A DNA stretch of 60,301 nt. Source: a virus. The position numbers and the translations under genes are program-made. The DNA lies in the IMG/VR virus record IMGVR_UViG_3300045988_176983, positions 1 through 60,301 of that record. One strand, given 5' to 3'. Below the pieces are notes generated by a model that had not been told where the DNA came from, made no database searches, and saw only the letters and a program-made list of their open reading frames with translations. Shown one piece after another: positions 2,078-56,738 of this stretch. The first letter of the stretch is position 1. Every line of letters begins with the position of its first letter.

Positions 2078-2416
2078 ATGATTAGAGATAAAATGAAACT
2101 TGTATTAGACGGCAAAACCGTTGCGGGCGAAAGCGAGGTAATACCCAACGCCGTAGGCGAAATGCTTTTCGTTCAGGTTGACGGCACGGCTTCGGCGTTT
2201 ACTTTGCAGGTGCAAGGTCGTTGCAATCGCGGAAACGGCGATTTTGTCAATCTTACGGGTTTTGACGGCGCGTTTAATACGAAAAGTTCGGTTACTTCTA
2301 CGGGCGTGTACACGTACTACATAGAAGGTATGACCGAACTAAAAGTCAATCTCGTATCTGTCGTAGGCGGCGCGATTTCCGTCTACGCTATGACTACTAC
2401 TTCAAGGGGTAACTGA
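2078..2416 (+). CDS. Hypothetical structural-module protein (112 aa)
   Basis: RBS aaaggag lies 8 nt upstream of the ATG. The ORF is tightly packed with its neighbours. Confidence 0.6.
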   Translation: MIRDKMKLVLDGKTVAGESEVIPNAVGEMLFVQVDGTASAFTLQVQGRCNRGNGDFVNLTGFDGAFNTKSSVTSTGVYTYYIEGMTELKVNLVSVVGGAISVYAMTTTSRGN

Positions 2417-2417
2417 T

Positions 2418-4667: not shown

Positions 4668-4718
4668 TCAAGTAATCTAAAAAATCGCCTCGCACCAAAG
4701 CGAGGCAAAGGAGTAAAA

Positions 4719-4946
4719 ATGGCGGTAATCGAAATTTACCCCTACGTTGACGAACAGGGGATAGAACACGAAAATCTCGTACAGCACAAAAGCGACGAGA
4801 ATAAACAAATTATCCAACTTGAAACGGGCAGAATATACGACGAGGCGATAGATTCATATCCTTGCAGATACACCTACGCCGAAATGATTCAGCCCGAAGA
4901 GAAAGAAATCGACGAAAACGTAGAGGCGGGAGAAAATGCAAACTAA
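4719..4946 (+). CDS. Hypothetical acidic protein (75 aa)
   Basis: RBS aaaggag is present. The ORF overlaps the next ORF start. Confidence 0.55.
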   Translation: MAVIEIYPYVDEQGIEHENLVQHKSDENKQIIQLETGRIYDEAIDSYPCRYTYAEMIQPEEKEIDENVEAGENAN

Positions 4947-5145
4947 TCGATACGCTTCTACGGGTTTTGCCCCGACGAATATACCGAGTAAAAGCGTACC
5001 TTCGTATACGGATATTCCCGATAACATAAAGACGATCGAGCGACTTGCAGAAGAGTGCAGACGGCGCGGTAATCGGCTTGAAATTATGAACGGTAAAGTG
5101 TACGAAGTAAAGCGGACTTTGCTTATGGAGTTAGATAAGGTATGA
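4936..5145 (+). CDS. Hypothetical protein (69 aa)
   Basis: RBS ggcgggag is present. There is a coupled ATGA overlap with the next gene. Confidence 0.5.
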   Translation: MQTNRYASTGFAPTNIPSKSVPSYTDIPDNIKTIERLAEECRRRGNRLEIMNGKVYEVKRTLLMELDKV

Positions 5146-5675
5146 AAAAGAGAGATTTTTACAATTACGACAACGCAGATTTTGCGTTTCTTAAACCGCT
5201 TATGCGTAAAATTATGACCGCATACGGCGAAGCGGAAAGGTTTTTCGCTTTCATAAAAGAGATAACTTGGGCGAAGTTCGGCTTAAAATCGCTTACGGGG
5301 TACATACACTCGCTCGAACACAAGCAACCCGATTACGTTGACGATTTTAAGGCTATTTTAGCCGAAAAGGGCTTGATAGTCGAATATCCGCCTATAAACG
5401 AACTCGTCGAAGAATTTGACGACCTCGATAAGGTTTTCGAGGTTTGCGTGGGTATAATCGACGAAACGGACGAAACGTTAAGAGAGTTCGTATTCGTTGT
5501 TGACGGCGAACACAGAGAGTTTTCCGCTCTTGCGAGAAAGGTCGAAGACCTGCAAATGCGTAACAGCGCGGACAGAGCGTTTTTGTTGGACGCATGGTCT
5601 ATGTGGGATAACGAGCCGTCGTACAGTTCTTTCGACAATTGGGTAAAGAACAACGCGCCGCAGATAAAAGAGTAA
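5142..5675 (+). CDS. Hypothetical protein (177 aa)
   Basis: Coupled start (ATGA). No motif was recognised. Confidence 0.55.
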   Translation: MKKRDFYNYDNADFAFLKPLMRKIMTAYGEAERFFAFIKEITWAKFGLKSLTGYIHSLEHKQPDYVDDFKAILAEKGLIVEYPPINELVEEFDDLDKVFEVCVGIIDETDETLREFVFVVDGEHREFSALARKVEDLQMRNSADRAFLLDAWSMWDNEPSYSSFDNWVKNNAPQIKE

Positions 5676-7803: not shown

Positions 7804-9171
7804 ATGAGCAAATTCAAAACGATAACCGAAAACGGGAAAACTTACAATTCTTTTATCGGTAAACTTAAAATTCTTGCCGAAAAAGACGGTTGGCGGCAGA
7901 AAGCGGAATTATGGCTTCTCAACGATATAACGAACAACAACGATTGGCGTTACGAGCGTTTGGAAGAGCATAAAAACCTTTTTGCGAAAACGCCTATACT
8001 CGTCGCTTATGTGGGCGACAAAATCGGCGACGGACACAATTTCAGAGAGGTAAGCAACCCCGACGGAAGCGTTATCGCTTCGTTTATGAGTTCTACCGCC
8101 GAAAGAATAGTCGGTTTCTTCGATAACGACAGCGATATAAGAATCGAAGAAAAAGACGGTAAAAAATGGATAGTAGGCATTGGGTATATCTGGCAATGGT
8201 ACGCGCAGGAGTTGGTGGCAAAAATCAAGAAACAGGGTCTTGACGGAATGTCTATCAGCATAGAAACCCTCGTTGACGAAATGCACAAAGAAGGTTCTAC
8301 CGAAGTGTTTACCAAATACCAGATACTCGGCACGACTATATTGGGCGACGACGTAGCCCCCGCTGTAACGGGAGCGAATATCAGAGCCTTATCCGCTTTG
8401 GGCGTTGACAAGATTAGAGAAGAGACGTTACGAGTCGCGTCAATGCAAGAGCAAAAACAAAAAAATCCGCAATCAAAAACAAAAAAGGAGAACAAAGTAA
8501 CAGTTATGAAACTCAAAGACTTAAAAAACGGTAAGTTCAACGGGTTCAGAGTTGTCGGCGTAGACGGCGAAAAAGTCGCTCTTTTATCGCTCGACAAAAA
8601 CGACGCTTTTGTTTCTACCGCAGTTCAAGACAACGGCGAAATAGTCGAGGGCGTTAAAACCGCCGTCAACGCGACTGTTGTTTTTGGCGAAGGTGAGAAC
8701 GAAGTAAAAGTTGCCCTCGACGCGGTAATCGAAGATTTGACCGCCGAAAACGCCGAACTTAAAGCCGAACTCAATTCGGTCAAAGAAGGCAAAGAAGCCG
8801 TCGAAAAATCGCTTAAAACTATGCAGGATGCCGAAATGGCGCGTAGAAAAGAAGCGGTTAAAAACGCCGTCCGCGAACAACTCGCGAAGAACAGAGAAAA
8901 TTCTCTCGCCGATATCGCGGATAACGAGTGCGACGACCTTTTGACCGACGAAAAAGTCGCAAAGTATTCCGAAATGGAAGAAGACGGCAAGTTCGTTGGC
9001 GACGAAAAGGCGCGTTGCGACGTTGACGCGCGTTGTATGAGCATAATTCGCGAACAAAACAAAGCGAAAATGCAGAAGGCTTTCGCTTGGGAAATTCCCA
9101 AAACGAACTCCGATAAGAACAACGGCGGCGACGACGTTCAAAACCTTATCGACAAAATGACTAATCAATAA
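7804..9171 (+). CDS. Capsid scaffolding / prohead protease-like protein
   Basis: 455 aa, immediately upstream of the capsid genes. A globular N-terminal half is followed by a long acidic coiled-coil C-terminal half (AENAELKAELNSVKEGKEAVEKSLK...). The protease part is not proven. Confidence 0.5.
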   Translation: MSKFKTITENGKTYNSFIGKLKILAEKDGWRQKAELWLLNDITNNNDWRYERLEEHKNLFAKTPILVAYVGDKIGDGHNFREVSNPDGSVIASFMSSTAERIVGFFDNDSDIRIEEKDGKKWIVGIGYIWQWYAQELVAKIKKQGLDGMSISIETLVDEMHKEGSTEVFTKYQILGTTILGDDVAPAVTGANIRALSALGVDKIREETLRVASMQEQKQKNPQSKTKKENKVTVMKLKDLKNGKFNGFRVVGVDGEKVALLSLDKNDAFVSTAVQDNGEIVEGVKTAVNATVVFGEGENEVKVALDAVIEDLTAENAELKAELNSVKEGKEAVEKSLKTMQDAEMARRKEAVKNAVREQLAKNRENSLADIADNECDDLLTDEKVAKYSEMEEDGKFVGDEKARCDVDARCMSIIREQNKAKMQKAFAWEIPKTNSDKNNGGDDVQNLIDKMTNQ

Positions 9172-9191
9172 AAATAAAGGAGAACTCAACT

Positions 9192-9815
9192 ATGAGCAAA
9201 ATTCAAAATACTCGTTTTGAAGTATATGTTTCCAATTCGAAGAGAAACGACAATCAAAACGTAACGGGTAAATTCGGCTCGTTCAGCGGTAGCGATTTTA
9301 CGCCCGACGACTGCGCCGCAGGTTTCCTTTGCGTAACCAAAGACAGACTTCCGCTTTTGGGATATGAAAGCGCGGGTCTTAAAAACGCAAACAGTTATTA
9401 CATGATCGCGGCGGCGAGTGGCGCGGTTGCGGGTCTTCCCGGCGACAGAACGGGCATTTACGCTTGCAACACTTACGACGTGAACAAAGCCGTAGACAGC
9501 GACGGAATGGTAATCAACCTTCCCGGCAAAACGCTCGGTCTTGCTCTTCCGGCAGACGAAAGAGGCGACTTCACCGAACTTATGGTCGGCGAGCAGTACA
9601 ATTTCGGCGCAGGCAACTTCTCTACCGCCCCGTCCGATTCGCTCAAATTCGCTACGATTGCTAACGGCTTGCTTGTTGCGGTAGCGGCTGCGCCTACCGA
9701 CGGCAGTGTTTACTTTGCGATCGAAGATTTTGGCAAACGCTTTATCGAAGGCGCATATGACGGCGGTCAGAAGATTACCGTCAGATGTCTCCGCAGCGTA
9801 AAAGCCGCAGGTTAA
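9192..9815 (+). CDS. Head-module protein (possible decoration or auxiliary capsid protein)
   Basis: 207 aa with RBS aaaggag. It lies between the scaffold gene and the major capsid candidate. Confidence 0.35.
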   Translation: MSKIQNTRFEVYVSNSKRNDNQNVTGKFGSFSGSDFTPDDCAAGFLCVTKDRLPLLGYESAGLKNANSYYMIAAASGAVAGLPGDRTGIYACNTYDVNKAVDSDGMVINLPGKTLGLALPADERGDFTELMVGEQYNFGAGNFSTAPSDSLKFATIANGLLVAVAAAPTDGSVYFAIEDFGKRFIEGAYDGGQKITVRCLRSVKAAG

Positions 9816-9830
9816 TAGGAGGACAAAAGA

Positions 9831-11072
9831 ATGAACGCAAAATCCTTAAACGCTTTGTCGAGAGATATATTCTCTTACAAATCCAACAACAATCAAAAAA
9901 TCAAAGTTTGCTCTGCCGAAGGAAAGTCGAGAGAAATCAGCCGCGACGAACTTATCAGCGCGGGCAGACTTGCAACCGTCGAATATTTCGGCAGAATTGC
10001 GAACAAGAGCAGAAGCAATTCCTACGCTACCAAAGTAGAAGATTACGCGTCTTTTTCGCGTAACACTTGGGTAAACACGGTGCTTTTCTGCGCGGCGCAG
10101 GCTAACACGGTAATCGGTAAAGCCCCGTACTCGACTATGCAAGAAGTCGAAAACGACCTCGGACTTTACAAAAACCCGATTTTCCTTAACGCGTTGCAGT
10201 CGATTTCGCAAGAAGTTATCACGCCGTTGCTTCCCGCCGTTATGGACGGAGTAATGGACAAACTCGTTACTTGGGAAAGAGGCAGAATCGGCGAAACTAA
10301 ACTCGTAGACGTTTTGTCTAACGACTTCTTCGTATTCGACGACGATTCTTGGGGTTCTGTTTCGAGTAAACCGTATCAGTACCTTTACAAGAGCCAAGTC
10401 GCCGTTACGCCGAAGCCCTATACCGCGAAGACCAAAATCAAGTGGTATCAGGACGTTATCGACGGCGAAGCGGGTCGTTACTATGCGGCGTTTGCACGCG
10501 GCGCGGCAAGCAAAATGTACGCTATGACGCTCGGTGAATTTAACAAGGCAATCGCAGACACGAAATATATGCCTTCGGGTAGCGTAATCGACGGTTTCTC
10601 GCTTGATAACTGGAATCAGGCGTTAATGCAGTCGCAAGCACTTAACGGCGTTTCCCGCGCTCAACTTATGGCACTCGGCTCTCTTGCCGGACTTTCCAAA
10701 ATACTTCCTACGGTCGGCACTGACGGCGCGGTGGCGGGTATTCAGGGCGAAATCGGTACGGAGTTCGTAAGAAACGGTTTCCTTGCCAACGTCGCAGGCG
10801 TAGACCTTATCGAAGCGGGTCTTGCAGTTGTTCCCGGTACGCAGAACTACAATCCGAAATTTCTCGGTCTTGACGACGCGACGAATAAGAATATCTACGT
10901 TATGGCTAAAATCGGTTACGCGCCTATGGTAGGTGCAATTGCCGAGGGTTCACCCATAACCATTACGTTTACCCCCGAAGAAACCGCCGATATGACTATC
11001 GACATTTCGGAAACGTTGGTATTCGACATTAAACCCGCGTTCAGTTCCAGAATAATCAAGATTAAGATTTAA
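9831..11072 (+). CDS. Major capsid protein (candidate)
   Basis: 413 aa with RBS taggagg. The call rests on position after the scaffold gene and on a stable hairpin immediately downstream (11107..11134). Confidence 0.55.
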   Translation: MNAKSLNALSRDIFSYKSNNNQKIKVCSAEGKSREISRDELISAGRLATVEYFGRIANKSRSNSYATKVEDYASFSRNTWVNTVLFCAAQANTVIGKAPYSTMQEVENDLGLYKNPIFLNALQSISQEVITPLLPAVMDGVMDKLVTWERGRIGETKLVDVLSNDFFVFDDDSWGSVSSKPYQYLYKSQVAVTPKPYTAKTKIKWYQDVIDGEAGRYYAAFARGAASKMYAMTLGEFNKAIADTKYMPSGSVIDGFSLDNWNQALMQSQALNGVSRAQLMALGSLAGLSKILPTVGTDGAVAGIQGEIGTEFVRNGFLANVAGVDLIEAGLAVVPGTQNYNPKFLGLDDATNKNIYVMAKIGYAPMVGAIAEGSPITITFTPEETADMTIDISETLVFDIKPAFSSRIIKIKI

Positions 11073-11210
11073 CGGAATCGTCGGCTTAAACCGATATATA
11101 CGCAACACGACGGCAATATTGCTGTTGCCGTCGTTATACGGGGATAAGAGAAAAATGCGGCGTGCAACTCCCGCAATCCCCGAAATAAAATTTTCCGAAG
11201 GAGAAGAAAA

Positions 11211-11876
11211 ATGGCAGAGGAAATTAAAAAAACAAACAACACGAAACCTGCGGGTGAATCTCGCAAAACCTACACGGAAGCGGAACTTCACGATATTGTG
11301 AATAAAGCCGTCGCCGAAGCGGTGAAAGCGGCAATGCAAAACGTGCAGTCGCAGACGGTATACGTCAAGGACAAAGCGGACGAATACGTTACGCTTTTGT
11401 ATATGGGCGTTGTAGCCGAAGGTTCGACCGTACACCTTAATGACAGGTTAGGCGACATTCAGGGTAGAGGCGGTACGAGAGATATTCCTAAAAAGGAATT
11501 TTTGCAAAACCTTACGCCGGGCGTTCTCGACCGTTTGAAAGACAGAAGACTTATAGTCTTGTCCGGGCTTACGGACGACGAAAGAGAGCGTTACGGGCTT
11601 AAATACGAAGACGGCGAACTTCTTTCGCCCGATATTTATTACAAACTTTTATCTTTGCCCGAAGATACCATTTGTAAGATTTTCAAATTGGCTTGCCCCG
11701 AACACAAAGCGATAATCGCAACGCTTTATATCGACGCGTATATGGCGCACGACAACAGGGTAAATCAACCGCTTATTCAACGCCTCAACAACATATCGAA
11801 AGAAACGGACAAGGACGGAATGTTCAAAGCGATTCTTAAAGATATGGCGAGAGTTTTGGCAGATAACGCAGACTAA
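11211..11876 (+). CDS. Hypothetical head/connector-module protein (221 aa)
   Basis: RBS gaaggagaag is present. Confidence 0.55.
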   Translation: MAEEIKKTNNTKPAGESRKTYTEAELHDIVNKAVAEAVKAAMQNVQSQTVYVKDKADEYVTLLYMGVVAEGSTVHLNDRLGDIQGRGGTRDIPKKEFLQNLTPGVLDRLKDRRLIVLSGLTDDERERYGLKYEDGELLSPDIYYKLLSLPEDTICKIFKLACPEHKAIIATLYIDAYMAHDNRVNQPLIQRLNNISKETDKDGMFKAILKDMARVLADNAD

Positions 11877-46686: not shown

Positions 46687-47328
46687 ATGGGATATATCGA
46701 ATGGAAAAACAGAGAAGAATGGCTTAAAGCGAGAAGGAAAACGCTTGGCGCGAGCGAAGTTGCAAGCGCAATCGGAATGGGGTTTAATTCGCCGATAGTT
46801 GTGTGGGAAGAAAAGGTAGGTAGGCGAGAACCGAAAGACCTTTCGACCAACGAGAGAGTGCAGTACGGCGTACAAGCCGAAGAGCATATTAGAGCGTTGT
46901 TTGAACTCCAATGCAAAGGCAAATATTCGGTTGAGTATCACGCTTTCAGAGTTTACCACCACGCAAAGTATTCGTTCCTGACGGCAACGCTTGACGGCGA
47001 ACTGATAAGGTTCGACGATAAGGCTCACGGTATATGGGAATGTAAAACGGCGTGGATAATGAGTAAATCCGATTTGGAACGGTGGGATAATAACTCAATC
47101 CCGCAACACTACTTTATTCAAATATGCGACCAACTTGCGGTAACGAAATTTGATTTCGTTGTTCTGACGGCACAGTTGATATTCCCGGACGGGAAATCCG
47201 AAATTCGTCATTACACGATTGAGCGTAATGAAGTCGAAAGCGAAATCGAATACATAACGCAAAAAGCGGTTGAGTTTTGGAAGTTTGTCAAAACGAACAA
47301 GCGACCGCCGCAGACGTTGACACTTTGA
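46687..47328 (+). CDS. YqaJ-type (lambda Exo-like) recombination exonuclease
   Basis: Contains LGASEVASAIG...VVWEEKVG...LDGEL...GIWECKTA. Confidence 0.75.
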   Translation: MGYIEWKNREEWLKARRKTLGASEVASAIGMGFNSPIVVWEEKVGRREPKDLSTNERVQYGVQAEEHIRALFELQCKGKYSVEYHAFRVYHHAKYSFLTATLDGELIRFDDKAHGIWECKTAWIMSKSDLERWDNNSIPQHYFIQICDQLAVTKFDFVVLTAQLIFPDGKSEIRHYTIERNEVESEIEYITQKAVEFWKFVKTNKRPPQTLTL

Positions 47329-47338
47329 GGGAAGAACA

Positions 47339-49423
47339 ATGCAGATAAGTATGTTTGACGGCGATAAGCCTTTCAAGGTTGATAAACCGTTGAGATTGAT
47401 AACTCTTTTTTCGGGGTACGACAGTCAGGCGTTGGCTCTTAAATATCTCGGCGTGCCTTTCGAGCATTACAAAACGTGCGAATGGGCGATTCCGTCGATA
47501 CAGGCGTTAAAAGACCTGCACTTCGAGAACGACGACACCGATTATTCGGTCGGAATGAATAAAGCCGAACTCGTAGAAACTTTATATACGGCGGGCGTGA
47601 GTGCCGATTACAACGTGCCGCTCACGAAAGAACAATTGCAAAGATACGGCGAAAACAAATTGCGGACGATTTACAATAATATCCGCGCTTGCCACAATCT
47701 CGTTTCGATATGCAATGCAAAAGGCGAAGACTTGGGAATTAAAGAAACGAACAAATATTGTTACTTACTTACGTATAGTTTTCCGTGTTTAACAGCCGAT
47801 AGTTTAATTTTAACAAAAGACGGGTACAAACCGATTGTTGACATAAAAGTGGGCGATTATGTTTTAACAAAGTCGAACACTTGGCAGAAAGTTGCGAAGA
47901 AATTTTCAAATGGTATACATAAAACCTTTTACGTTCAAGGAATGAATTTTGAAAATATTCACTGCACTGCCAACCATAAATTTTATGTCAGGTCAAAATT
48001 TTATAAAGGACACAAAAAAATTCGTTCATTTACCGAACCCGCTTTCAAGGAAGTGAAAGATATAACGCGTAACGATTATTTCGGCGTTCCTGTTATTCAA
48101 ATCGAAAAGTTTTTTTATACAAACGATTTAGATTTTTGGTATATGATAGGCTATTACTTGGGCGACGGGTGGTTGAGTAAAAACGGAACAGATATATGCT
48201 TGGCTTGTAACGATAAAAAATTTGAAAAATTACAATCGCGACTTCTGAAAGAAAAATGGAATTGGACTTGCTATTTTTCTTCAACGTGTGGACGATTTAG
48301 GTTTTCAAATAAAAACATATACAAGTTCATTAAGAAGTATATCGGAACGGGTTGTAATAAAAAGAATATTAGTGCCGATATTTTGAATTTGCCTAAACAG
48401 CAACTTCAAGCATTGTTTGAAGGGTATTTAGACAGCGACGGTTGTGTAATCAATGGTAAAATGCAATTTTCTACGGTTAATAGGCAAATGGCGTATGGGT
48501 TTTCAGCGATAATAAATAAACTTTACCATAGGGCGGTAAGTTTTAATAGAACCAAAGTAAAACCACAAAAAGTAATACAGGGTAGAATTGTCAACCAAAG
48601 AGAGTGGTATTTATTGAGGTTTAACCCTAAAAACTCGAAACAGGACAAGGCTTTTTATGAAAATGGGTATATATGGTATCCGTTTAATAAAATCGAACAA
48701 GGCGACGACGAGTTTGTTTTCAATATGGAAATAGAAAACGACCATAGTTATATCGTTCAATCTTGTATCTCGAAAAATTGTCAGGACTTATCCGCCGCCG
48801 GGTTAGGCAAAGGTATGGAACGCGGGAGCGGCACTCGAAGCGGTATGCTTTGGGAAGTCGAAAGGCTTTTGAAAGAAACGAAAGAACTTCCGCAAGTGCT
48901 TTTAATGGAAAACGTAAAACAGGTAATCGGGCAAAAGAACATTAAAGCGTTCGCCGAGTGGGTAGCGTTTTTAGACGAACTTGGTTATCACTCGAAATGG
49001 CAGGTAATAAATGCGACGGACTTTTCAATTCCGCAAAACCGCGAGCGTTGCTTTATGGTAAGCGTACTCGGCAATCACTATTACGAATTTCCGAAAACAA
49101 TCGGCAACAAGTTAAAACTAAAAGACTTACTCGAAAAGTCCGTCGCCGAGCAGTACTACATAAGCGAAAAAATTGTTGAGACCTATTACAAGAGAAACAT
49201 TCTCAACGAGGAAAAGGGAAACGGTTTCAGGTTTGAGCCTACCGAGGGGGAAAACGTTGCCAACTCGGTGCTTACAAGAAACGGCAGTCGCCCTTGCGAT
49301 AATTACATTATTCAACGTTCTCACGGGTTCAATAAAGGCGGTAAGAAAAACGACTGCCCGGCAATAACGACGAGTGCATTTGAGCAAAATAATATGATTG
49401 TAGAGGTAAACCGTGAAGAATGA
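47339..49423 (+). CDS. DNA (cytosine-5) methyltransferase, N-terminal/catalytic module (motifs I-VIII), interrupted by an intein
   Basis: Motif I is LFSGYDSQ. Motif IV is split as TYSFP | intein | CQDLSAAG. Motif VI is LLMENV and motif VIII is QNRERCFMVS. Confidence 0.85.
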   Translation: MQISMFDGDKPFKVDKPLRLITLFSGYDSQALALKYLGVPFEHYKTCEWAIPSIQALKDLHFENDDTDYSVGMNKAELVETLYTAGVSADYNVPLTKEQLQRYGENKLRTIYNNIRACHNLVSICNAKGEDLGIKETNKYCYLLTYSFPCLTADSLILTKDGYKPIVDIKVGDYVLTKSNTWQKVAKKFSNGIHKTFYVQGMNFENIHCTANHKFYVRSKFYKGHKKIRSFTEPAFKEVKDITRNDYFGVPVIQIEKFFYTNDLDFWYMIGYYLGDGWLSKNGTDICLACNDKKFEKLQSRLLKEKWNWTCYFSSTCGRFRFSNKNIYKFIKKYIGTGCNKKNISADILNLPKQQLQALFEGYLDSDGCVINGKMQFSTVNRQMAYGFSAIINKLYHRAVSFNRTKVKPQKVIQGRIVNQREWYLLRFNPKNSKQDKAFYENGYIWYPFNKIEQGDDEFVFNMEIENDHSYIVQSCISKNCQDLSAAGLGKGMERGSGTRSGMLWEVERLLKETKELPQVLLMENVKQVIGQKNIKAFAEWVAFLDELGYHSKWQVINATDFSIPQNRERCFMVSVLGNHYYEFPKTIGNKLKLKDLLEKSVAEQYYISEKIVETYYKRNILNEEKGNGFRFEPTEGENVANSVLTRNGSRPCDNYIIQRSHGFNKGGKKNDCPAITTSAFEQNNMIVEVNREE
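47786..48778 (+). mobile_element. Intein (331 aa) with a LAGLIDADG homing-endonuclease domain
   Basis: Block A is CLTADSLILTKDG and block B is TANH. The LAGLIDADG motifs are WYMIGYYLGDGW and LFEGYLDSDGC. The C-terminal block is VFNMEIENDHSYIVQSCISKN. The +1 residue is the Cys of the methyltransferase PC motif. Confidence 0.85.
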
Positions 49424-50128
49424 AACAAAAGGCTGTATTGTCATCGGACGGCTTGGCGGTAAATTCGAGCATACTCTTGACCTTACAAGACGAGTTTATG
49501 ACGTTAATGCGGTTGCGCCGACTATAACGACGTGCGGGGGGGTAATACAGAACCTAAAATTATGGAAGAAAAAGATTATCGTTTTTACAATCAGGCGTGG
49601 GAGACTATAAAAAATCACGACTGTAAAGCGGGCGACATAGTAGACGCTTTTAACAAAAAAGTCAACGATAGTGGCATATCCCCGACGATTACTACGCGCC
49701 CGGAAGGTTTCAAAACCGCAATATTGTTAGTTGACGAACCGCAACAAGACAAAGAGATTATCGTCTTTGACGATTATAACGGTTGCGTAAAAGCCGACCA
49801 AAGTTCCGTCGGAACTTTGACACGGAATTGCGGGAACGACGCAATACGAAACGGAATAAAAATCGTAGAAAAAGAAGCGGATAGACAACAAGATATTGCC
49901 CCATATCGAATACGAAAACTTACGGAGCGAGAATGTGGCAGGCTTATGGGCGTTAAAGACGACGACATAGCCAAAATCGGCAAGAATTTAAGTCGGTCGG
50001 CACAATATCATATGTTTGGCGACAGCATAGTAACGAGTTGCCTTATGGCGATATTTGGCAAAATGTTTAACGTAGACTATGAAAGCAAAATTAAAGAATT
50101 AACAAAAAATTTAACAGGAGAGGGTTAA
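49413..50128 (+). CDS. C5-methyltransferase C-terminal module (target-recognition repeats plus motifs IX-X), with a reading-frame change at a G7 tract
   Basis: The frame-0 piece (GTG 49413, RBS agagg) reads ...RVYDVNAVAPTITTCGG. After G7 (49536..49542) the sequence continues in the -1 frame as GNTEPK...ISPTITTRPEG...RKLTERECGRLMGV...FGDSIVTS, ending at 50128. Confidence 0.6.
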
Positions 50129-50130
50129 AA

Positions 50131-51051
50131 ATGGAAGAATACAGCATTGACAAAGCGTTAGAAACGCTTGAAGAGACTAACACGCCGCAGACGATAGAAT
50201 TTAAGGTACAAAACGATTTCGTTGAAAAATTGCCTGCGATTTTATCCAACTGCGAGCAAGTAAAACAATGGGCTATCGCACAAACCGAAGCGGACAGAAA
50301 TCTCATACTTAAAACAGACGAAGACTTCGACAGCGGAAGAAAGCGTTGCGCCGAAATCAACAAGGTCGTCGCAAGTATCGAAAGCCGCAGAAAGGAAGTA
50401 AAAAAAGAGTATAACAAGCCCTATGAGTTGTTTGAAAAGAAACTCAAAGAAGTAACTGCGGTTCTTACCGAAGCGAAAGATAATCTTTGGTCGCAGATAA
50501 CCGCCGCCGAAGAAAAGGTTAAAGCCGAAAAGGAAAACGATTTCAAAAGATACTTCGAAAATCACGACGATTACGCAAAAATCAAAGATTATCGCGGTTG
50601 GGAGCAGATTTTCGACAAAACTTGGCTTAATAAAGGCAAGAAGTACGACACGGTATTCAAGGAAATCGACGGCAAAATTAAAACGGCATGCGACGAACTC
50701 GCGGCGATATCCGACCTGAACAGCGAATTTGAAACTGTGCTTTTGGTAAAGTACAAAAACGGCGCGAGCCTTACCGAAATATTGTCGGCGAACCGCGAAT
50801 TAAAAAAGCAGAAAGAAGAACTCGAACGTAAAAAAGCGGAACAACAGCAAGCGGCGGTTAAACAAAGTGTTGAAATGCCGACTGTTGAACAGCCACAAGC
50901 GCAGACCATGCAAGCCGAAGTTACGGAAACGGACGAAGAACTTATCTCGATCGATTTCCGCGTCGTATGCACGAAAACGAAATTAAAGGCTCTCGGCGAC
51001 TATATGAAAATAAACGGAATTAAATACGGCAGAGTGCCGAAAGGAGAATAA
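50131..51051 (+). CDS. Hypothetical recombination-module protein (DUF1351-like by position and composition)
   Basis: 306 aa, immediately upstream of recT, as is common in Firmicute phages. Confidence 0.4.
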   Translation: MEEYSIDKALETLEETNTPQTIEFKVQNDFVEKLPAILSNCEQVKQWAIAQTEADRNLILKTDEDFDSGRKRCAEINKVVASIESRRKEVKKEYNKPYELFEKKLKEVTAVLTEAKDNLWSQITAAEEKVKAEKENDFKRYFENHDDYAKIKDYRGWEQIFDKTWLNKGKKYDTVFKEIDGKIKTACDELAAISDLNSEFETVLLVKYKNGASLTEILSANRELKKQKEELERKKAEQQQAAVKQSVEMPTVEQPQAQTMQAEVTETDEELISIDFRVVCTKTKLKALGDYMKINGIKYGRVPKGE

Positions 51052-51056
51052 ACATT

Positions 51057-52067
51057 ATGGCAGTAAATAATACTCTCGCGCCGGTCAACGGCGAAGAAAA
51101 AGTAAAATTCGGTGTGGCGATACAAAGCCCGAAATATCAGGCACTTATAAACAGTACGCTACGCGATCCGAAAAGGGCTAACCGTTTTGTCGCGTCGGTT
51201 ATGTCGGCGGTAACGGCTAATCCGCTTTTACAGAACTGCACACCGGCTTCGGTTATCACTGCGGCGTTGCAAGGCGAAGCACTTGAATTAAGTCCGTCGC
51301 CCACGCTCGGCGAATATTATCTCGTTCCGTACAAGAAAAGCGTAAAAGACCCCAATACGGGTGATTGGATAAAAATCGCCCAATGTCAATTTCAGATAGG
51401 AACTGCCGGGCGCATACAACTCGCCATGAGAACAGGGCAGTACAAAGACCTTGACGCGGTTGACGTAAGACAGGGCGAATATCGCGGAAGAAACCCCGAA
51501 ACGGGAAAGCCCGTTATCAAGTTTTACGAAGACGAGAATATGCGCGAGAATTTGCCCGTTGTAGGGTATCTCGGATATTTCCTTTTAACGAACGGCTTTT
51601 ATCATTCGGTGTATTTCACCGTCGAGCAGTGCTTAAAGTGGGCTGAAAGATACAGCAAGTCATTCGACCGCAAACTTTACGAAAAAGTTAAGGACGGCGA
51701 AAAACTCGATTGGAAAGAAGAGCAGGCAGCAACTCAACCGTGGATAGCGCACACCGAAGAAATGTGCAAAAACCTCGTATTGCGCAGGGCGTTAAAGAAC
51801 GCGCCGAAATCAATCGAAATGCGTAATATAGTCGAGGGCGACGAAAAGACCGAAGCAGATATTTCTTCCGCGTTTAACGGAACTATGCCGCCCGCAATAG
51901 AACCGAAAGACAAAATTCAGACAGAGCAAAAGCAAGCAGAAGACGACTTCTTCGGCGATGAACCGCAGGAAGACGAGCAACAATCGCCCGTAGAAGAGAA
52001 GCCTAAGCGCGGGCGTAAGAAAGCCGAGCCGACGGCAGAAGCAGTAGAACAAACCGAAATAGGCTGA
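51057..52067 (+). CDS. recT: RecT-family single-strand annealing protein
   Basis: Contains ALINSTLRDPKRANRFVASVMSAVTANPLLQNCTPASVITAALQGEALELSPSPTLGEYYLVPY. Confidence 0.85.
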   Translation: MAVNNTLAPVNGEEKVKFGVAIQSPKYQALINSTLRDPKRANRFVASVMSAVTANPLLQNCTPASVITAALQGEALELSPSPTLGEYYLVPYKKSVKDPNTGDWIKIAQCQFQIGTAGRIQLAMRTGQYKDLDAVDVRQGEYRGRNPETGKPVIKFYEDENMRENLPVVGYLGYFLLTNGFYHSVYFTVEQCLKWAERYSKSFDRKLYEKVKDGEKLDWKEEQAATQPWIAHTEEMCKNLVLRRALKNAPKSIEMRNIVEGDEKTEADISSAFNGTMPPAIEPKDKIQTEQKQAEDDFFGDEPQEDEQQSPVEEKPKRGRKKAEPTAEAVEQTEIG

Positions 52068-52089
52068 ATAAAAGCAAAAAGGAAGAATA

Positions 52090-52608
52090 ATGTTAATTCA
52101 ACAATATTCTGAAAAACTAAAAAAATGGATGGTACTCGGCGTAGGTTACGTTTGTTGTAGAGAAGGTCAAACTCCTATACAAAAAACTATTACCCCTTTG
52201 AGAAACGGAACTACGTCGCGTATCCATTTTTCGGTAACGGTCGGCTCGGTACTTAACGAGAACAAACAGGCTGTGTACCACAATGTACCTTGCGCCATTT
52301 ACGCAAGCGAACGCACGAAAGAAATCTATAATTTTGCACTGTCGTTAAGGCGAAGAGATTTAGTGCAGTTTGCCGGATATATGTACGAAGGCGAAGTTAT
52401 CGATAATCAAGGCAATCCGAGAAGATTCAGAGAGGTACGGCTTAACTGGCTATTGCCTTTGAAGATATTTTTTAACGGAAACGTATCTATTCCGACAACG
52501 AATTTCAACGGAAAAGTTGAAAATGGAAATGAAAATATCAACACTGTTGATTTTTCTAATGCAGGCGAGAGCGACGATTTTTGGGAAGACGACGCAAAAG
52601 GAGAGTAA
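52090..52608 (+). CDS. Hypothetical protein, possibly a divergent OB-fold/SSB-like protein with an acidic tail
   Basis: 172 aa with a C-terminal ESDDFWEDDAKGE. The call rests on position after recT. Confidence 0.3.
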   Translation: MLIQQYSEKLKKWMVLGVGYVCCREGQTPIQKTITPLRNGTTSRIHFSVTVGSVLNENKQAVYHNVPCAIYASERTKEIYNFALSLRRRDLVQFAGYMYEGEVIDNQGNPRRFREVRLNWLLPLKIFFNGNVSIPTTNFNGKVENGNENINTVDFSNAGESDDFWEDDAKGE

Positions 52609-52611
52609 GTT

Positions 52612-53022
52612 ATGAGTTACAGAATGTGCTACGGACAGCGAAACAAACTCGGCAATAAGAAAGTCGTAGTAGACGGTATAGAGTTCGACAGCAAACGTGA
52701 AGCGGTAAGGTATTCCGAACTCAAACTTATGGAACGGGCGAAACTTATAAGCAACCTCGAACTGCAAAAGGAGTTTGAGTTGATACCTTCTCAACGCGAA
52801 CCCGATACGATCGGAAAGCACGGTGCTATCGTTAAAGGAAAAGTCATTGAAAGAGCCGTCAAATACATAGCCGATTTCGCTTATATAGACAACAGAACGG
52901 GGCAATTAGTCGTAGAAGACAGTAAAGGATATCGTAACCCGGCAAGCACGGAATACGCAAAGTTTGTAATCAAACGCAAACTTATGCTTTACAAGTACGG
53001 AATAAGGGTAAAGGAAGTATGA
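52612..53022 (+). CDS. DUF1064-type (PD-(D/E)XK, resolvase-like) protein
   Basis: Contains KLGNKKVVVDGIEFDSKREAVRYSELKLMERAKLISNLELQKEFELIP...YIADFAY...VVEDSKG. Confidence 0.65.
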   Translation: MSYRMCYGQRNKLGNKKVVVDGIEFDSKREAVRYSELKLMERAKLISNLELQKEFELIPSQREPDTIGKHGAIVKGKVIERAVKYIADFAYIDNRTGQLVVEDSKGYRNPASTEYAKFVIKRKLMLYKYGIRVKEV

Positions 53023-53225
53023 CGAAAGGAATTACCGAAAGTGTTTTAGAAGAAATCGAGAAAAGCGGAATGTCTATCAAATCGATTTCCGAAAAGAGCG
53101 GCGTAAGTCGCACGACGATTATGGGTTGGATAAACGGCGGGAATACGCCGACGATAGAAAACGCGGATTTTGTTCTTGCGGTATTGGGTAAACGATTAGA
53201 GATTGGAGAGTTGGGTAATGACTAA
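53019..53225 (+). CDS. Small HTH protein (68 aa)
   Basis: Contains MSIKSISEKSGVSRTTIMGWINGGNTP. Confidence 0.55.
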   Translation: MTKGITESVLEEIEKSGMSIKSISEKSGVSRTTIMGWINGGNTPTIENADFVLAVLGKRLEIGELGND

Positions 53226-53415
53226 AAGAAAAGTAATTCGTTGCGAACACTTAAACGCCGCTAAACAAAAATGCGGCAATTATATAGGCAAATTCGTCGG
53301 CGAAACTGTCATAATCAAGCGGCACGGCAGAGAGATACATATCGGCGCGGGGCAGTCCGTCGAAATCAAATGCGAGCGTTGCGGGGGCATAACGAAAGTC
53401 GAATGGAAACTCTAA
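53203..53415 (+). CDS. Small zinc-ribbon protein (70 aa)
   Basis: Contains CEHLNAAKQKCGN...KCERCGG. Confidence 0.5.
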   Translation: MESWVMTKRKVIRCEHLNAAKQKCGNYIGKFVGETVIIKRHGREIHIGAGQSVEIKCERCGGITKVEWKL

Positions 53416-54101
53416 TCGAAACAAACAAGGTTTACAACTGCGACTGTATAGAACTCTTACGTAATATGTCGGCAAGGGGGGTAAAGGCAGATTGGTGTAT
53501 AACCGACCCGCCTTACGGAATAGGAATTGAATCAATGTCGTTTACTAACGGCAAAGAGATTGCGGGGAACGCGAAAGCGAAAAGAAGAAACTATTCCGAT
53601 ACCAAACCGTGGGATAAACAGAGAATAACGAAAGAATATTTCGACTTAATCTTTAAGTGCAGTAAAAATCAGATTATTTTTGGCGGTAACTATTATACCG
53701 ATTATTTACCGCCGACGGCGAGTTGGGTTGTGTGGGATAAGCGTTGCGACGATAAAATGCGAAACGATTTTGCCGATTGCGAAATCGCGTGGTGCAGCAA
53801 AGGCGTTGCAAGAGTGTTTCATTACGTTTACAACGGAATGATTCAGGGCGATATGAAAGCCAAAGACGAACGATTTCATCCCACGCAGAAACCCACTCAA
53901 CTATGGGTCAACCTGATTAACTACTACACAAAGCCCGGCGATTTAATTCTCGATCCTTTTATGGGAAGTTTCACTACTGCGATAGCCGCGTACAGAACGG
54001 GCAGAAATTATATCGGGGCGGAACTCGACAAAGACTATTACGAGTTGGGAAGTAAACGGCTCGAAAAAGAAAAACAACAATTACGAATTTTTGATTTATA
54101 G
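53403..54101 (+). CDS. DNA N6-adenine or N4-cytosine methyltransferase (beta-class order)
   Basis: The DPPYG motif precedes LDPFMGSFTTAIAA. The start was set at METLIE; the track ORF begins upstream in an Arg-rich extension. Confidence 0.85.
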   Translation: METLIETNKVYNCDCIELLRNMSARGVKADWCITDPPYGIGIESMSFTNGKEIAGNAKAKRRNYSDTKPWDKQRITKEYFDLIFKCSKNQIIFGGNYYTDYLPPTASWVVWDKRCDDKMRNDFADCEIAWCSKGVARVFHYVYNGMIQGDMKAKDERFHPTQKPTQLWVNLINYYTKPGDLILDPFMGSFTTAIAAYRTGRNYIGAELDKDYYELGSKRLEKEKQQLRIFDL

Positions 54102-54109
54102 GAAACGAT

Positions 54110-54910
54110 ATGAGCAAAATCGATTTAAGGCTTGGCGACTGCTACGAACTCATAAAAACAATACCTGACAAGAGCATAGATTTAGTATATTGCGATATTC
54201 CTTACGATATCGAGGGTAACGGCGGTGGCGGGTGTTTCGGCGAAAAGAAACGCGATTACCACGCCGAATACGAAAAAGTCTGCGAAAACACAAACAGCAC
54301 GGCAAGCCGAGTGTATAAGTCCACAATGAAAAGTATTGACAATATCAAGGAAATTGCTTTCGGTATAGATTACGACATTTTGGACGAGTTTTGCAGAGTG
54401 TTGAAAAATATTTACGTTTATATCTGGTGCAGCAAAGCGCAGATTTTACCGCTTATGAATTATTTCGTCGGCGAGCGTGGGTGTCGCTTTGAAATTCTGA
54501 CGTGGTTGAAGTCAAATGCAATACCCACTTGCAACGGCAAATATTTAAGCGATACCGAATATTGCCTTATGTTCCGCGACGGCGGTAAGACCAAAATCGG
54601 CGGAACTATGAAAACGAAACAAAAGTATTACATAAGCCCGTTAAACGTAAAGGATAAAGGCAATTTTCTTCACCCGACGATAAAGCCGTTACCTTTCGTA
54701 GAAAATCATATTCTTAACTCGACGAAAGAAGGCGACACAGTTCTTGATTGCTTTATGGGTAGCGGAACGACAGGTTTAGCGTGTAAACACTTAAAACGAA
54801 ATTTTATCGGTTTCGAGATAGAGGAAAAGTGGTACAAGATAGCAAAAAGCCGAATCGAGGGTTACAACGCGTTCGGGCAGGGCAACTTTTTGGAGATAAA
54901 TGGATTATGA
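54110..54910 (+). CDS. Second DNA amino-methyltransferase (beta-class order)
   Basis: The CDIPYD motif precedes LDCFMGSGTTGLAC. Confidence 0.8.
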   Translation: MSKIDLRLGDCYELIKTIPDKSIDLVYCDIPYDIEGNGGGGCFGEKKRDYHAEYEKVCENTNSTASRVYKSTMKSIDNIKEIAFGIDYDILDEFCRVLKNIYVYIWCSKAQILPLMNYFVGERGCRFEILTWLKSNAIPTCNGKYLSDTEYCLMFRDGGKTKIGGTMKTKQKYYISPLNVKDKGNFLHPTIKPLPFVENHILNSTKEGDTVLDCFMGSGTTGLACKHLKRNFIGFEIEEKWYKIAKSRIEGYNAFGQGNFLEINGL

Positions 54911-55086
54911 CGGAAATCAGCGAGAAAGAGTTTTTGCAGTTAAAAGCAAAGCGACTAATGGAACAGTCAATCAAAAGCGAACAATGGAACGGCTTACCTG
55001 CCGAAACCCGGCAAGATATATTCGTTTTTGCATTGTTTGTAAATAATTATTTAGACAAAGTAGAGGGAAAGAAAAATGTACAATGA
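54907..55086 (+). CDS. Hypothetical protein (59 aa)
   Basis: ATGA-coupled to the methyltransferase gene. Confidence 0.45.
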   Translation: MTEISEKEFLQLKAKRLMEQSIKSEQWNGLPAETRQDIFVFALFVNNYLDKVEGKKNVQ

Positions 55087-55384
55087 ACAACAACAGAAAG
55101 AAATAGCGGAAATGGCAGAGTTTATTCACGGTAGGCGTGATAAAAACGGATCATTAAAAACGGCGCAGGCACTTTACGACGCGGGTTATCGTAAAGTTGA
55201 CGAAAAGACGCGGCAGTATTTGGAGTATATACCCGAAATGAAAAAAGCGTTTGACAAGGTTGCCGCAGAAACCGTCAACAAGTTCGCGAAAGAAGTAAAG
55301 AAAGAAGCAAATCGTTGCTACGAGTATGATATTGAAAAAATTATTGTTTCAATAGTTGATAATATTTTGAAGAGGTATGAGTAA
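55076..55384 (+). CDS. Hypothetical protein (102 aa)
   Basis: RBS agagggaaag is present. Confidence 0.5.
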   Translation: MYNEQQQKEIAEMAEFIHGRRDKNGSLKTAQALYDAGYRKVDEKTRQYLEYIPEMKKAFDKVAAETVNKFAKEVKKEANRCYEYDIEKIIVSIVDNILKRYE

Positions 55385-55386
55385 AA

Positions 55387-55698
55387 ATGAAATACACACA
55401 CGAAAGCGAAGAGTTAAACACTCTTTTAGAAGAACGCTTTTCTCGCTTTGTTTGCTTAACGATTGATGAAGCCGTTAAGTATGCAGGGGGCGAAAATCGT
55501 GAAATTTGCGGTTGGCACATATCTAACTTAAAGATTTACGACAAGCCGAAAGATTTATCCTGTTTTTATAAGCCTTGCCCGCAAAAAAACGTAATTTGCA
55601 GAGATTGTGAATATTTATTTAGGATAGACGGCAGTTGTATGAATATAGTAACCCGACCGCCGCAGTCGTATATGCGGGTTGAAGAGTGGGGAGAGTAA
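55387..55698 (+). CDS. ASCH/PUA-like protein (candidate)
   Basis: GWHISNLKIYDKPKDLSCFY...TRPPQSYMRV resembles the ASCH-type proteins common in Firmicute phages, as recalled from memory. Confidence 0.35.
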   Translation: MKYTHESEELNTLLEERFSRFVCLTIDEAVKYAGGENREICGWHISNLKIYDKPKDLSCFYKPCPQKNVICRDCEYLFRIDGSCMNIVTRPPQSYMRVEEWGE

Positions 55699-55700
55699 AA

Positions 55701-56738
55701 ATGCCGACGAGAAATGAACTAACTCAATTACAGTCTTTACCGCTTGAATTAAAGGTAATGCGTACTCAACAGCGCATACGCGAATGGGTACAGTATTACG
55801 GCATAGACGGCGTTTACGTTTCGTTTTCGGGCGGTAAAGACAGCACGGTTCTGTTGGATATGGTAAGGAAACTATATCCGACGATAAAAGCCGTTTTCAT
55901 TAACACCGGGCTTGAATATCCCGAAAATCAGCAATTCGTTAAAAGTTTCGACAATGTTGAAATTCTACGCCCCGCAATGCGCTTCGACGAGGTTATAAAA
56001 ACCTACGGATATCCCGTAATCGGGAAAGAGGTAAGCGAGTGTGTATATCAAGGGAGAATGGCGTTGACAAGTAATCGATCCCCGTATCGATTACAGAAAC
56101 TATTCGGCACGGCAAAGGACAAGAACGGCAACGAAAGCAAATACAACAAGACGAAGTACGCGCCGTTGCTTTTTACGGACTTTAAGATATCTCATATGTG
56201 TTGCAACGTTATGAAAAAGAAGCCCGCTCACGAATACAGCAAAATCACGGGCAAAATGCCTATGACGGCGCAAATGGCAGAAGAAAGTCAACTTCGCGAG
56301 CAGCAGTGGCTACGCAACGGGTGCAACGGTTTTGATATGAAATCGCCGATAAGTAACCCTATGAGTTTTTGGAAGGAGCAAGACGTTCTGCAATACATAA
56401 AGCAAAACAATCTACCGATATCAAAGGTATACGGCGAAGTCGTAGTAAAAGACGACGGCGGATATCAATACGGAGCAACGCTTTGCGACTGCGGTAAGTT
56501 ATGCACGACGGGCGCGAAACGGACAGGCTGTATATTCTGTATGTATTCCGCGCATTGCAAAGGCGACGAAAGGTTTTTATTACTCAAAAACAATCACCCG
56601 CGTCAATACGAGTATTGTATGGGCGGCGGGGCGTATGATACGGACGGCTTTTGGAAGCCGACCAAAGATGGGTTGGGTATGAAGCACGTCATAGACGAGA
56701 TAAATAAAATCTACGGAGACGGCTTTATAAAATACTAA
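55701..56738 (+). CDS. PAPS-reductase-family (PP-loop) protein with a C-terminal Cys cluster
   Basis: Contains the SFSGGKDSTVLLDM PP-loop and CDCGKLCTTGAKRTGCIFC. The start was set at the ATG preceded by ggggagag. Confidence 0.8.
   Translation: MPTRNELTQLQSLPLELKVMRTQQRIREWVQYYGIDGVYVSFSGGKDSTVLLDMVRKLYPTIKAVFINTGLEYPENQQFVKSFDNVEILRPAMRFDEVIKTYGYPVIGKEVSECVYQGRMALTSNRSPYRLQKLFGTAKDKNGNESKYNKTKYAPLLFTDFKISHMCCNVMKKKPAHEYSKITGKMPMTAQMAEESQLREQQWLRNGCNGFDMKSPISNPMSFWKEQDVLQYIKQNNLPISKVYGEVVVKDDGGYQYGATLCDCGKLCTTGAKRTGCIFCMYSAHCKGDERFLLLKNNHPRQYEYCMGGGAYDTDGFWKPTKDGLGMKHVIDEINKIYGDGFIKY

Follow-up and report, generated by a model that had tools for sequence, protein, structure and literature searches.

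The stretch analysed here is a virus-derived window of 60,301 nucleotides (nt), IMG/VR record IMGVR_UViG_3300045988_176983, in which a C5-cytosine methyltransferase gene is interrupted at its catalytic loop by a long in-frame insert with the features of an intein. The open reading frame (ORF) concerned, ORF1, lies at 47339..49423 on the plus strand and encodes 694 amino acids (aa), reading ...KYCYLLTYSFP/CLTADSLILTKDG...SCISKN/CQDLSAAG..., where slashes mark the ends of the insert. The insert itself occupies 47786..48778 of the same strand, comprises 993 nt or 331 stop-free codons, and sits between Pro149 and Cys481 of methyltransferase motif IV. An original prediction, made from the sequence alone, had placed a 331-aa insert exactly at the Pro-Cys of motif IV, and its coordinates were reproduced. 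The G+C content of the insert is 33%, compared with about 44% in both flanks.

The sequence on either side of the insert is that of a C5 methyltransferase. The flanks are matched by the Pfam family DNA_methylase (PF00145; E 2.7e-33) and by the NCBIfam family dcm (TIGR00675; E 4e-30), and motifs I, IV (PC), VI (ENV) and VIII (QxRxR) are all found, in order. When ORF1 is spliced in silico, the 363-aa product aligns without gaps across motif IV with M.MpeI and M.HhaI, both of solved structure, and its TYSFPCQDLS is identical in M.MpeI; this places the +1 residue, Cys481, at the Cys of the PC motif. Cys81 of M.HhaI is the catalytic nucleophile of the C5 methyltransferase PC motif, and by analogy Cys481 is the presumptive nucleophile of this enzyme, as had been proposed for the +1 residue.

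Every intein motif listed beforehand (the Cys start, TANH, IGYYLGDGW, FEGYLDSDGC and SCISKN/C) was located in the translation (Table 1). In a family alignment of 68 sequences, made up of the window intein and 67 relatives, Cys1, Thr61, His64, His320 and Asn331 are invariant, and a Cys occupies +1 in 67, the remaining sequence ending at the junction. The two LAGLIDADG aspartates, Asp127 and Asp218, are likewise kept in 67 of the 68; one family member has Asn at both positions. Profile searches, which had been suggested as a check, bore out the endonuclease in full and the splicing domain in its placement: LAGLIDADG_3 (PF14528) reaches 35.6 bits, above its gathering score of 22.5, while Hint_2, PT-HINT and TIGR01445 match from residue 1, Intein_splicing ends its match at residue 331, and Hom_end_hint also fits the proper ends, each of these below its cut-off. 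PDB sequence matches with an aligned stretch are exclusively inteins (Prp8, Spl DnaX and gp41-1); a fifth listed chain, a fatty-acid synthase domain, has no matched stretch.

The predicted structure is that of a bifunctional intein. An AlphaFold2 model of the insert, built on the alignment of 67 relatives, has a mean predicted local distance difference test score (pLDDT) of 95.4 and a predicted template modelling score (pTM) of 0.92. Its best Foldseek match in the PDB is the TliVMA intein 7qsu (E 6e-17, template modelling score TMq 0.73), and PI-SceI, PhoVMA, PI-PfuI and PI-TkoII are further top whole-intein matches. Taken by itself, the central part resembles I-DmoI and I-Tsp061I across about 180 residues (TMt 0.51-0.58), the order of secondary structure elements in the model agrees with the pseudo-dimeric alpha-beta-beta-alpha-beta-beta-alpha LAGLIDADG fold, and the ends of the insert match the mini-inteins 4oz6 and 6frg. 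The N- and C-terminal segments are accordingly predicted to form a Hint fold. With the solved inteins of the Thermococcus litoralis and Pyrococcus horikoshii VMA proteins (TliVMA and PhoVMA; 7qsu, 7qss, 7qst), PI-SceI (1vde, 1lws) and PI-PfuI (1dq3), its best structural matches (E 6e-17 to 1e-11, TMq 0.56-0.73), the window intein shares a Hint domain with a nested two-motif LAGLIDADG endonuclease as well as Cys1, TxxH, the block F His, the terminal Asn and Cys+1. It differs from them in host protein, in having a sequence identity of 12-15%, and in three residues: a penultimate Lys rather than His, a block F Asn rather than Asp, and a Pro at -1.

Taken with the evidence for mobility described below, these features make it very likely that we are dealing with a functional class 1 intein that bears a LAGLIDADG homing endonuclease and is lodged at the motif IV Pro/Cys of a temperate phage C5 methyltransferase. 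Two other classifications were dropped. A class 3 intein does not fit, as Cys1 is present and the WCT triplet is absent; nor does a group I intron or a free-standing endonuclease gene, as the frame is open and the ends are modelled as a Hint fold.

Table 1. Features of the interrupted methyltransferase gene and its surroundings, in window coordinates
Feature	Position	Strand	Details
N-extein, 149 aa	47339..47785	+	PF00145, TIGR00675; ends TYSFP, Pro149 being the -1 residue
Motif I, LFSGYDSQ, in N-extein	47405..47428	+	
Upstream co-conversion tract	47773..47785	+	Synonymous sites -13, -10, -4 and -1 donor-type
Intein, class 1 (probable), with nested two-motif LAGLIDADG homing endonuclease	47786..48778	+	331 aa
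N-terminal splicing region	47786..47977	+	Block A (Cys1, CLTADSLILTKDG) to block B (CTANH)
CTANH, block B	47963..47977	+	Intein residues 60-64; Thr61 and His64
Homing endonuclease core	48143..48445	+	LAGLIDADG motif 1 to motif 2; PF14528
LAGLIDADG motif 1, MIGYYLGDGW	48143..48172	+	Residues 120-129; Asp127
LAGLIDADG motif 2, LFEGYLDSDGC	48413..48445	+	Residues 210-220; Asp218
C-terminal splicing region	48716..48778	+	Blocks F and G
Block F, VFNMEIENDHSYIV			Residues 311-324; Asn313 in place of the usual Asp; His320
Block G, SCISKN			Residues 326-331; penultimate Lys330, terminal Asn331
C-extein of ORF1	48779..49423	+	PF00145; starts at Cys481 (CQDLSAAG), followed by motif VI LMENV, motif VIII QNRER and one target-recognition module (CPAITTSAFEQNN)
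Downstream co-conversion tract	48779..48784	+	+6 donor-type; backbone pattern back by +16
Methyltransferase C-terminal ORF, start	49413..49610	+	GTG overlapping the ORF1 stop; Shine-Dalgarno AGAGGT upstream; extra target-recognition module; 65 aa
ORF1 stop, TGA	49421..49423	+	Ends the C-extein
Rest of methyltransferase C-terminal part	49532..50128	+	Another target-recognition module and motifs IX-X; PF00145 positions 243-323 of 324

Intein-free alleles and signs of recent homing

Close relatives of the gene exist without the insert. Four homologues (P0040, P0057, P0086 and P0095), with exteins 84-95% identical to those of ORF1, read TYSFP/CQDLS uninterrupted, and residues 150-480 are exactly missing from all four and from contig L001, on which P0040 lies. 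L001 has the gene order of the window (YqaJ, methyltransferase, DUF1351, RecT) and is 94.9%, 91.7% and 94.6% identical to it at the nucleotide level in three blocks around the gene, the first gap being exactly the 993 nt of the intein. The L001-type intein-free junction DNA reads …TTACAGTTTCCC/TTGTCAAGACTTATCC…, also written …CTTACTTACAGTTTCCC/TTGTCAAGACTTATCCGCC…, with the slash at the insertion point. The comparison with intein-free homologues advised in the original prediction thus returned a clean 331-aa insertion between P and C, and the near-identical alleles without it speak against its being a normal domain of the family.

The insert might nonetheless be something other than an intein, whether a resident domain, a retained fused endonuclease, or a free-standing endonuclease gene or intron that has been misread, and actinophage methylases do carry non-intein endonuclease insertions (PMC9957025, PMC11855218). 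Here, however, alleles with exteins 93-95% identical precisely lack the insert, its ends are predicted to make a Hint fold with Cys1 and with Asn331 followed by Cys+1, and the chance of a 331-codon stop-free frame at its base composition is about 3e-13. An insert retained in the PC catalytic loop would also disable the enzyme. We regard these alternatives as effectively refuted and return to the intein.

The intein and the exteins differ in their closest relatives. The nearest intein, that of P0002 on contig L009, is 95.8% identical to the window intein in amino acids and 96.4% in nucleotides, whereas the exteins of P0002 are only 64% (N-extein) and 72.5% (C-extein) identical to those of the window. 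The closest intein-bearing methyltransferase relatives, P0010 and P0012, carry an intein of another clade: P0010 has exteins 81-88% identical to those of the window and an intein just 40% identical, and the figure for the P0012 intein is likewise 40%. Co-conversion was assessed by scoring in the window the sites that distinguish L001-type from L009-type alleles. The window follows L009, the P0002-type donor, at -13, -10, -4, -1 and +6, and follows L001 at nearly all informative sites at or beyond -19 and +16, so that the converted flank measures less than 19 nt on the 5' side and less than 16 nt on the 3' side. On this pattern, the window allele is an L001-type backbone that received its intein from a P0002-type donor; among its metagenomic relatives, it is an L001-type methyltransferase that was, by these signs, recently invaded.

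Both parts of the gene are under purifying selection. Between the window and L009 inteins, the ratio of nonsynonymous to synonymous substitution rates (dN/dS) is 0.14 over the whole, 0.09 in the Hint part and 0.19 in the endonuclease part. Between the window and L001 it is 0.08-0.11 for the exteins, the N-extein having 95% nucleotide identity and a dN/dS of 0.08. The value for the Hint part lends indirect support to splicing. The intein therefore looks mobile, functional and recently acquired, and from these sequence comparisons we consider it very probably active and recently homed into this phage's C5 methyltransferase. Near-identical phages with and without the intein, the mismatch in relatedness and the co-conversion tracts lend indirect support to homing by cleavage of intein-free alleles.

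In such a model, the endonuclease of the excised protein, with Asp127 and Asp218, would cut intein-free alleles at the sequence coding for motif IV, and repair off an intein-bearing copy would insert the intein. The RecE/YqaJ-like exonuclease and RecT genes that lie beside the methyltransferase could serve the double-strand-break repair that homing requires, and might thus help it along. Beyond the mechanism, the window and L001 provide a natural before-and-after pair for homing, two phage alleles about 95% identical, one with and one without the intein. The donor-type tracts of less than 19 nt per side are unusually sharp evidence of how little flank travels with the intein.

Splicing residues and a split enzyme

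From the anatomy and established intein chemistry, we infer the following course of splicing. ORF1 would be translated as a 694-aa precursor with its catalytic loop interrupted. Cys1 of the intein would perform an N-S acyl shift at the Pro149-Cys150 bond, and Cys481, the +1 residue and the methyltransferase's catalytic Cys, would accept the N-extein by trans-thioesterification. Cyclisation of Asn331 would then free the intein, and an S-N shift would give TYSFP-CQDLS with motif IV intact. His64 of block B and His320 of block F would act as the conserved catalytic helpers; with Asn313 and Lys330 in this clade, the block F His presumably covers Asn cyclisation.

Asn313 and Lys330 belong to a pattern that divides the family. 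In the 68-sequence alignment, 36 sequences combine a block F Asp with an end in ...VHN, 30 combine Asn with ...SKN or ...SAN, and two have Asp with ...SN, so that the change from Asp to Asn in block F and the loss of the penultimate His change together. The 30 are the window intein and 29 relatives that are mutually 50-67% identical, apart from P0002 at 96%. The penultimate Lys rather than His, already pointed out in the original prediction, is therefore present and is a trait of the whole clade. Asp at position F:4 is common in inteins, though not universal. Similar departures have been described elsewhere: in class 1 inteins of mycobacteriophages the penultimate His is poorly conserved and is replaced by Gly, Lys or Ser, and a Gly-penultimate intein of this group splices well, with the block F His thought to stand in (PMC5050341).

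The third departure, Pro at -1, is found in every member of the site that was inspected and is imposed by the PC motif. It is tempting to speculate that the motif IV Pro/Cys inteins are a large natural family evolved to splice with a -1 Pro and with the host's catalytic Cys as +1, and that the Asn and the Lys or Ala of the SKN/SAN clade reflect catalysis of thioester transfer and Asn cyclisation by a differently arranged set of residues; we hold this tentatively, at somewhat short of even confidence. Provided that splicing is efficient, the site would readily supply Pro-tolerant inteins, and the two clades would form a natural pair in which to study how block F and penultimate residues cooperate. 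The -1 Pro is the one feature that specialists might find worth an experiment, and the obligatory Pro with the linked Asp-to-Asn and His-to-Lys/Ala changes would be cheap to test and could yield useful inteins.

The host gene is itself divided, a point missed in the original prediction. ORF1 ends before motifs IX-X, which lie in a separate downstream ORF, so the 363-aa spliced product foreseen earlier would make up just the N-terminal portion of the methyltransferase. With an intein in ORF1 and motifs IX-X in a second ORF, the enzyme of this lineage would therefore need both splicing and the association of a second polypeptide. Functional split C5 enzymes exist, for example M.AquI, and fragment complementation of M.SssI is reportedly the subject of one study, going by its title. 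A sequencing error behind the ORF1 stop was considered and dropped, as several variants within the cluster share the stop, in the form VN[R/C/S]EE followed by the stop codon.

In the window, the downstream ORF is shortened to 65 aa by a tract of seven G residues (G7) at 49536..49542, with a possible 188-aa restart at the ATG at 49565; the remainder (49532..50128) continues in the frame of ORF1, with stops between. Contig L004 has G7 as in the window. Contig L003, with one mismatch and one G difference from the window over 4184 nt, has G8 and an intact C-terminal ORF of 238 aa that matches PF00145 and includes the extra target-recognition module and motifs IX-X. The G7/G8 difference could reflect phase variation, which would alter the set of recognition modules present, or else an error in homopolymer length.

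Several points weigh against a working intein in a working gene. The Hint-type profiles all score under their curated cut-offs, and Lys330, Asn313 and Pro149 make three departures from textbook class 1 residues; with Pro at -1, most natural and engineered inteins are reported to fail (PMC6486613). The downstream ORF is frameshifted at G7, and the window copy may not yield an active enzyme even with splicing, being possibly switched off or altered. Splicing itself, the activity and target of the endonuclease and the roles of individual residues are all things that we infer.

An intein in decay, one that no longer splices efficiently and resides in a pseudogene or non-functional methyltransferase, could account for the non-canonical residues, for an ORF1 that stops ahead of motifs IX-X with a frameshifted ORF after it, and for a family member that has lost both LAGLIDADG aspartates. 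Decay is nevertheless difficult to reconcile with dN/dS values of 0.09-0.19 in the intein and 0.08-0.11 in the exteins, or with the retention of SKN/SAN and Asn313 in 30 of 68 divergent sequences in which all other catalytic residues are invariant. The nearly identical L003 retains an intact C-terminal ORF, and the conserved ORF1 stop, followed by a Shine-Dalgarno sequence and a GTG, points to a split gene. Phage inteins with penultimate Gly, Lys or Ser are known, and one with Gly splices (PMC5050341). We therefore judge decay to be very unlikely.

A functional intein could, in addition, double as a post-translational switch, with splicing, and hence methyltransferase activity, dependent on redox state or on the timing of infection, and with the altered block F and G residues tuning the rate. 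The catalytic Cys is the +1 nucleophile, Cys1, Cys327 and Cys481 lie close together, and the methyltransferase active site cannot exist before splicing. The penultimate residue also varies by clade within this one insertion site (H, K, A or S), and in mycobacteriophage inteins this residue alters precursor accumulation (PMC5050341). Yet nothing in the sequence demands regulation, the intein is dispensable given its presence or absence in near-identical phages, and all signatures of mobility are compatible with a purely selfish element. A switch is accordingly an unlikely addition to the picture of a recently homed intein.

A recurrent intein site in motif IV

The Pro/Cys site is widely occupied. 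Among the 120 best protein homologues, 116 have an intein at the PC site and four are intein-free; in eight of these homologues the same intein occurs in a methyltransferase subfamily with HGSP/C, and for P0062 only the matching C-terminal junction was seen. A full HMMER scan with the intein alone recovered 5771 cluster representatives at E<=1e-3, 371 of them reaching E<=1e-30. The majority of the best 150 have their intein at the P/C of motif IV, with methyltransferases from widely differing subfamilies as hosts. Among the leading 50%-cluster representatives, roughly 91 had readable junctions and at least about 80 of these carry the PC-site intein; of 30 whose junctions were placed with phmmer, most proved to be PC-T variants of motif IV. 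The sequence before the junction may be TYSFP, HGSP, GGSP, FGFP or GGFP, and that after it CQ or CT. Relatives with an N/CQD junction are spread over genomes and assemblies from many phyla.

The same arrangement is found in GenBank phages whose records have no intein annotation. Lactobacillus phage Nyseid (AUV59832.1), the Asteriusvirus Escherichia phage UE-S1 (UTS53451.1), a P1-type Dmt (UYD72463.1) and Mannheimia phage 587AP2 share the insertion point (…FP/C…N/CQ.xS), and their inteins are of the LAGLIDADG type, 26-27% identical to that of the window over residues 1-331. These inteins, of 312-341 aa, belong to the canonical clade (…VHN/C), in contrast to the window intein, which is of the SKN/SAN clade with a block F Asn, and their exteins come from methyltransferase subfamilies very different from that of the window. 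In Escherichia phage P1 isolate OP279344.1 (L008), the dmt gene at 2270..5311 has a 341-aa LAGLIDADG intein at the Pro/Cys of its C5 domain, with junctions GGTP/CFTAGH…AVVHN/CQAFS, and is annotated merely as 'Dmt'. The P1-type phages RCS47 and vB_EcoM-Ro157c2YLVW have such a Dmt intein as well. The record of Mannheimia phage 587AP2 divides the gene into two overlapping coding sequences (a hypothetical protein and a cytosine-specific methyltransferase), the change of frame falling just past the C-terminal junction of the intein.

Inteins in other phage methylases offer a close parallel. Those of actinobacteriophages are likewise class 1 with LAGLIDADG endonucleases and a poorly conserved penultimate His, Lys included, and likewise show evidence of horizontal transfer between divergent methylases (PMC5050341, PMC9957025, bioRxiv 10.1101/2025.01.02.630785). 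The characterised examples, however, interrupt N6/N4 methylases (PF01555), and do so at another motif, HV/C…KN/CPLQ; in Mycobacterium phage Doug, the intein of the N6/N4 methylase gp68 is 25% identical to that of the window and ends VVKN/C. The 2016 survey by Kelley et al. gives N6/N4 enzymes as the only methylase hosts (PMC5050341), and a 2025 survey names C-5 methylases (IPR001525) among the hosts of actinophage inteins (bioRxiv 10.1101/2025.01.02.630785). In the literature library that we searched, no paper turned up that describes an intein at the motif IV Pro/Cys of C5 methyltransferases; hits on CASP14, C. thermocellum, a B. thuringiensis phage, Nodularia, Thermus phages and Bryopsis plastids proved to be irrelevant.

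The window intein thus adds a member to an intein site that is already well populated, poorly annotated and seldom described, and is not a new kind of element. These findings leave existing knowledge of how inteins work unchanged; their practical consequence lies in annotation. Records labelled 'DNA-cytosine methyltransferase', 'Dmt' or 'hypothetical' in GenBank and IMG have inflated protein lengths and conceal a mobile element, and flagging the motif IV Pro/Cys as a recurrent intein site would correct many of them.

Recognition modules and phage context

The gene split coincides with an extra module in the variable region. About 159 nt at window positions 49393..49552 (around 2670 in L001), flanked by similar PxITT-coding sequence, make up an additional module that carries the stop and the restart dividing the gene. 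The intein-free L001 is without this module and has a single chain of 538 aa, and P0079 has a homologous module in frame (…RRVYDTNGIAPTQHTCGGGN…). As the flanks of the module are similar, its placement by MAFFT is ambiguous and BLAST coordinates were used. After the P0002 and P0010 genes there is also a separate ORF with a weak PF00145 match, following gaps of 214-367 nt (L009 5100..5314 and L010 5160..5527). This methyltransferase family may often be split, or otherwise interrupted, in its variable region.

The phage of the window is temperate and siphovirus-like, with genes for a portal, a tape measure, an integrase and RecE/YqaJ-RecT. It is absent from the GenBank phage collection, in which megablast of the gene gave no match, and a genome scan for its host returned only relatives at most 59% identical, in gut Bacteroidaceae and Paludibacteraceae assemblies, which do not name the host. 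A recombination and modification module surrounds the methyltransferase (46687..47328, 50131..52067, 53271..54910 and 55686..56738), containing the YqaJ/RecE-like exonuclease, DUF1351 and RecT and, by synteny with L001, two N6_N4 methyltransferases and a PAPS-reductase-like gene. Together with the C5 gene, these two bring the DNA methyltransferases of the phage to at least three. Over 49551..55375 the window is 94.6% identical to L001 in nucleotides. Beyond that block, about 280 nt at 55375..55654 stand where L001 has about 3 kb (8471..11526) with some nine small ORFs, YopX among them, a difference that amounts to a module swap or deletion between blocks 92-95% identical.

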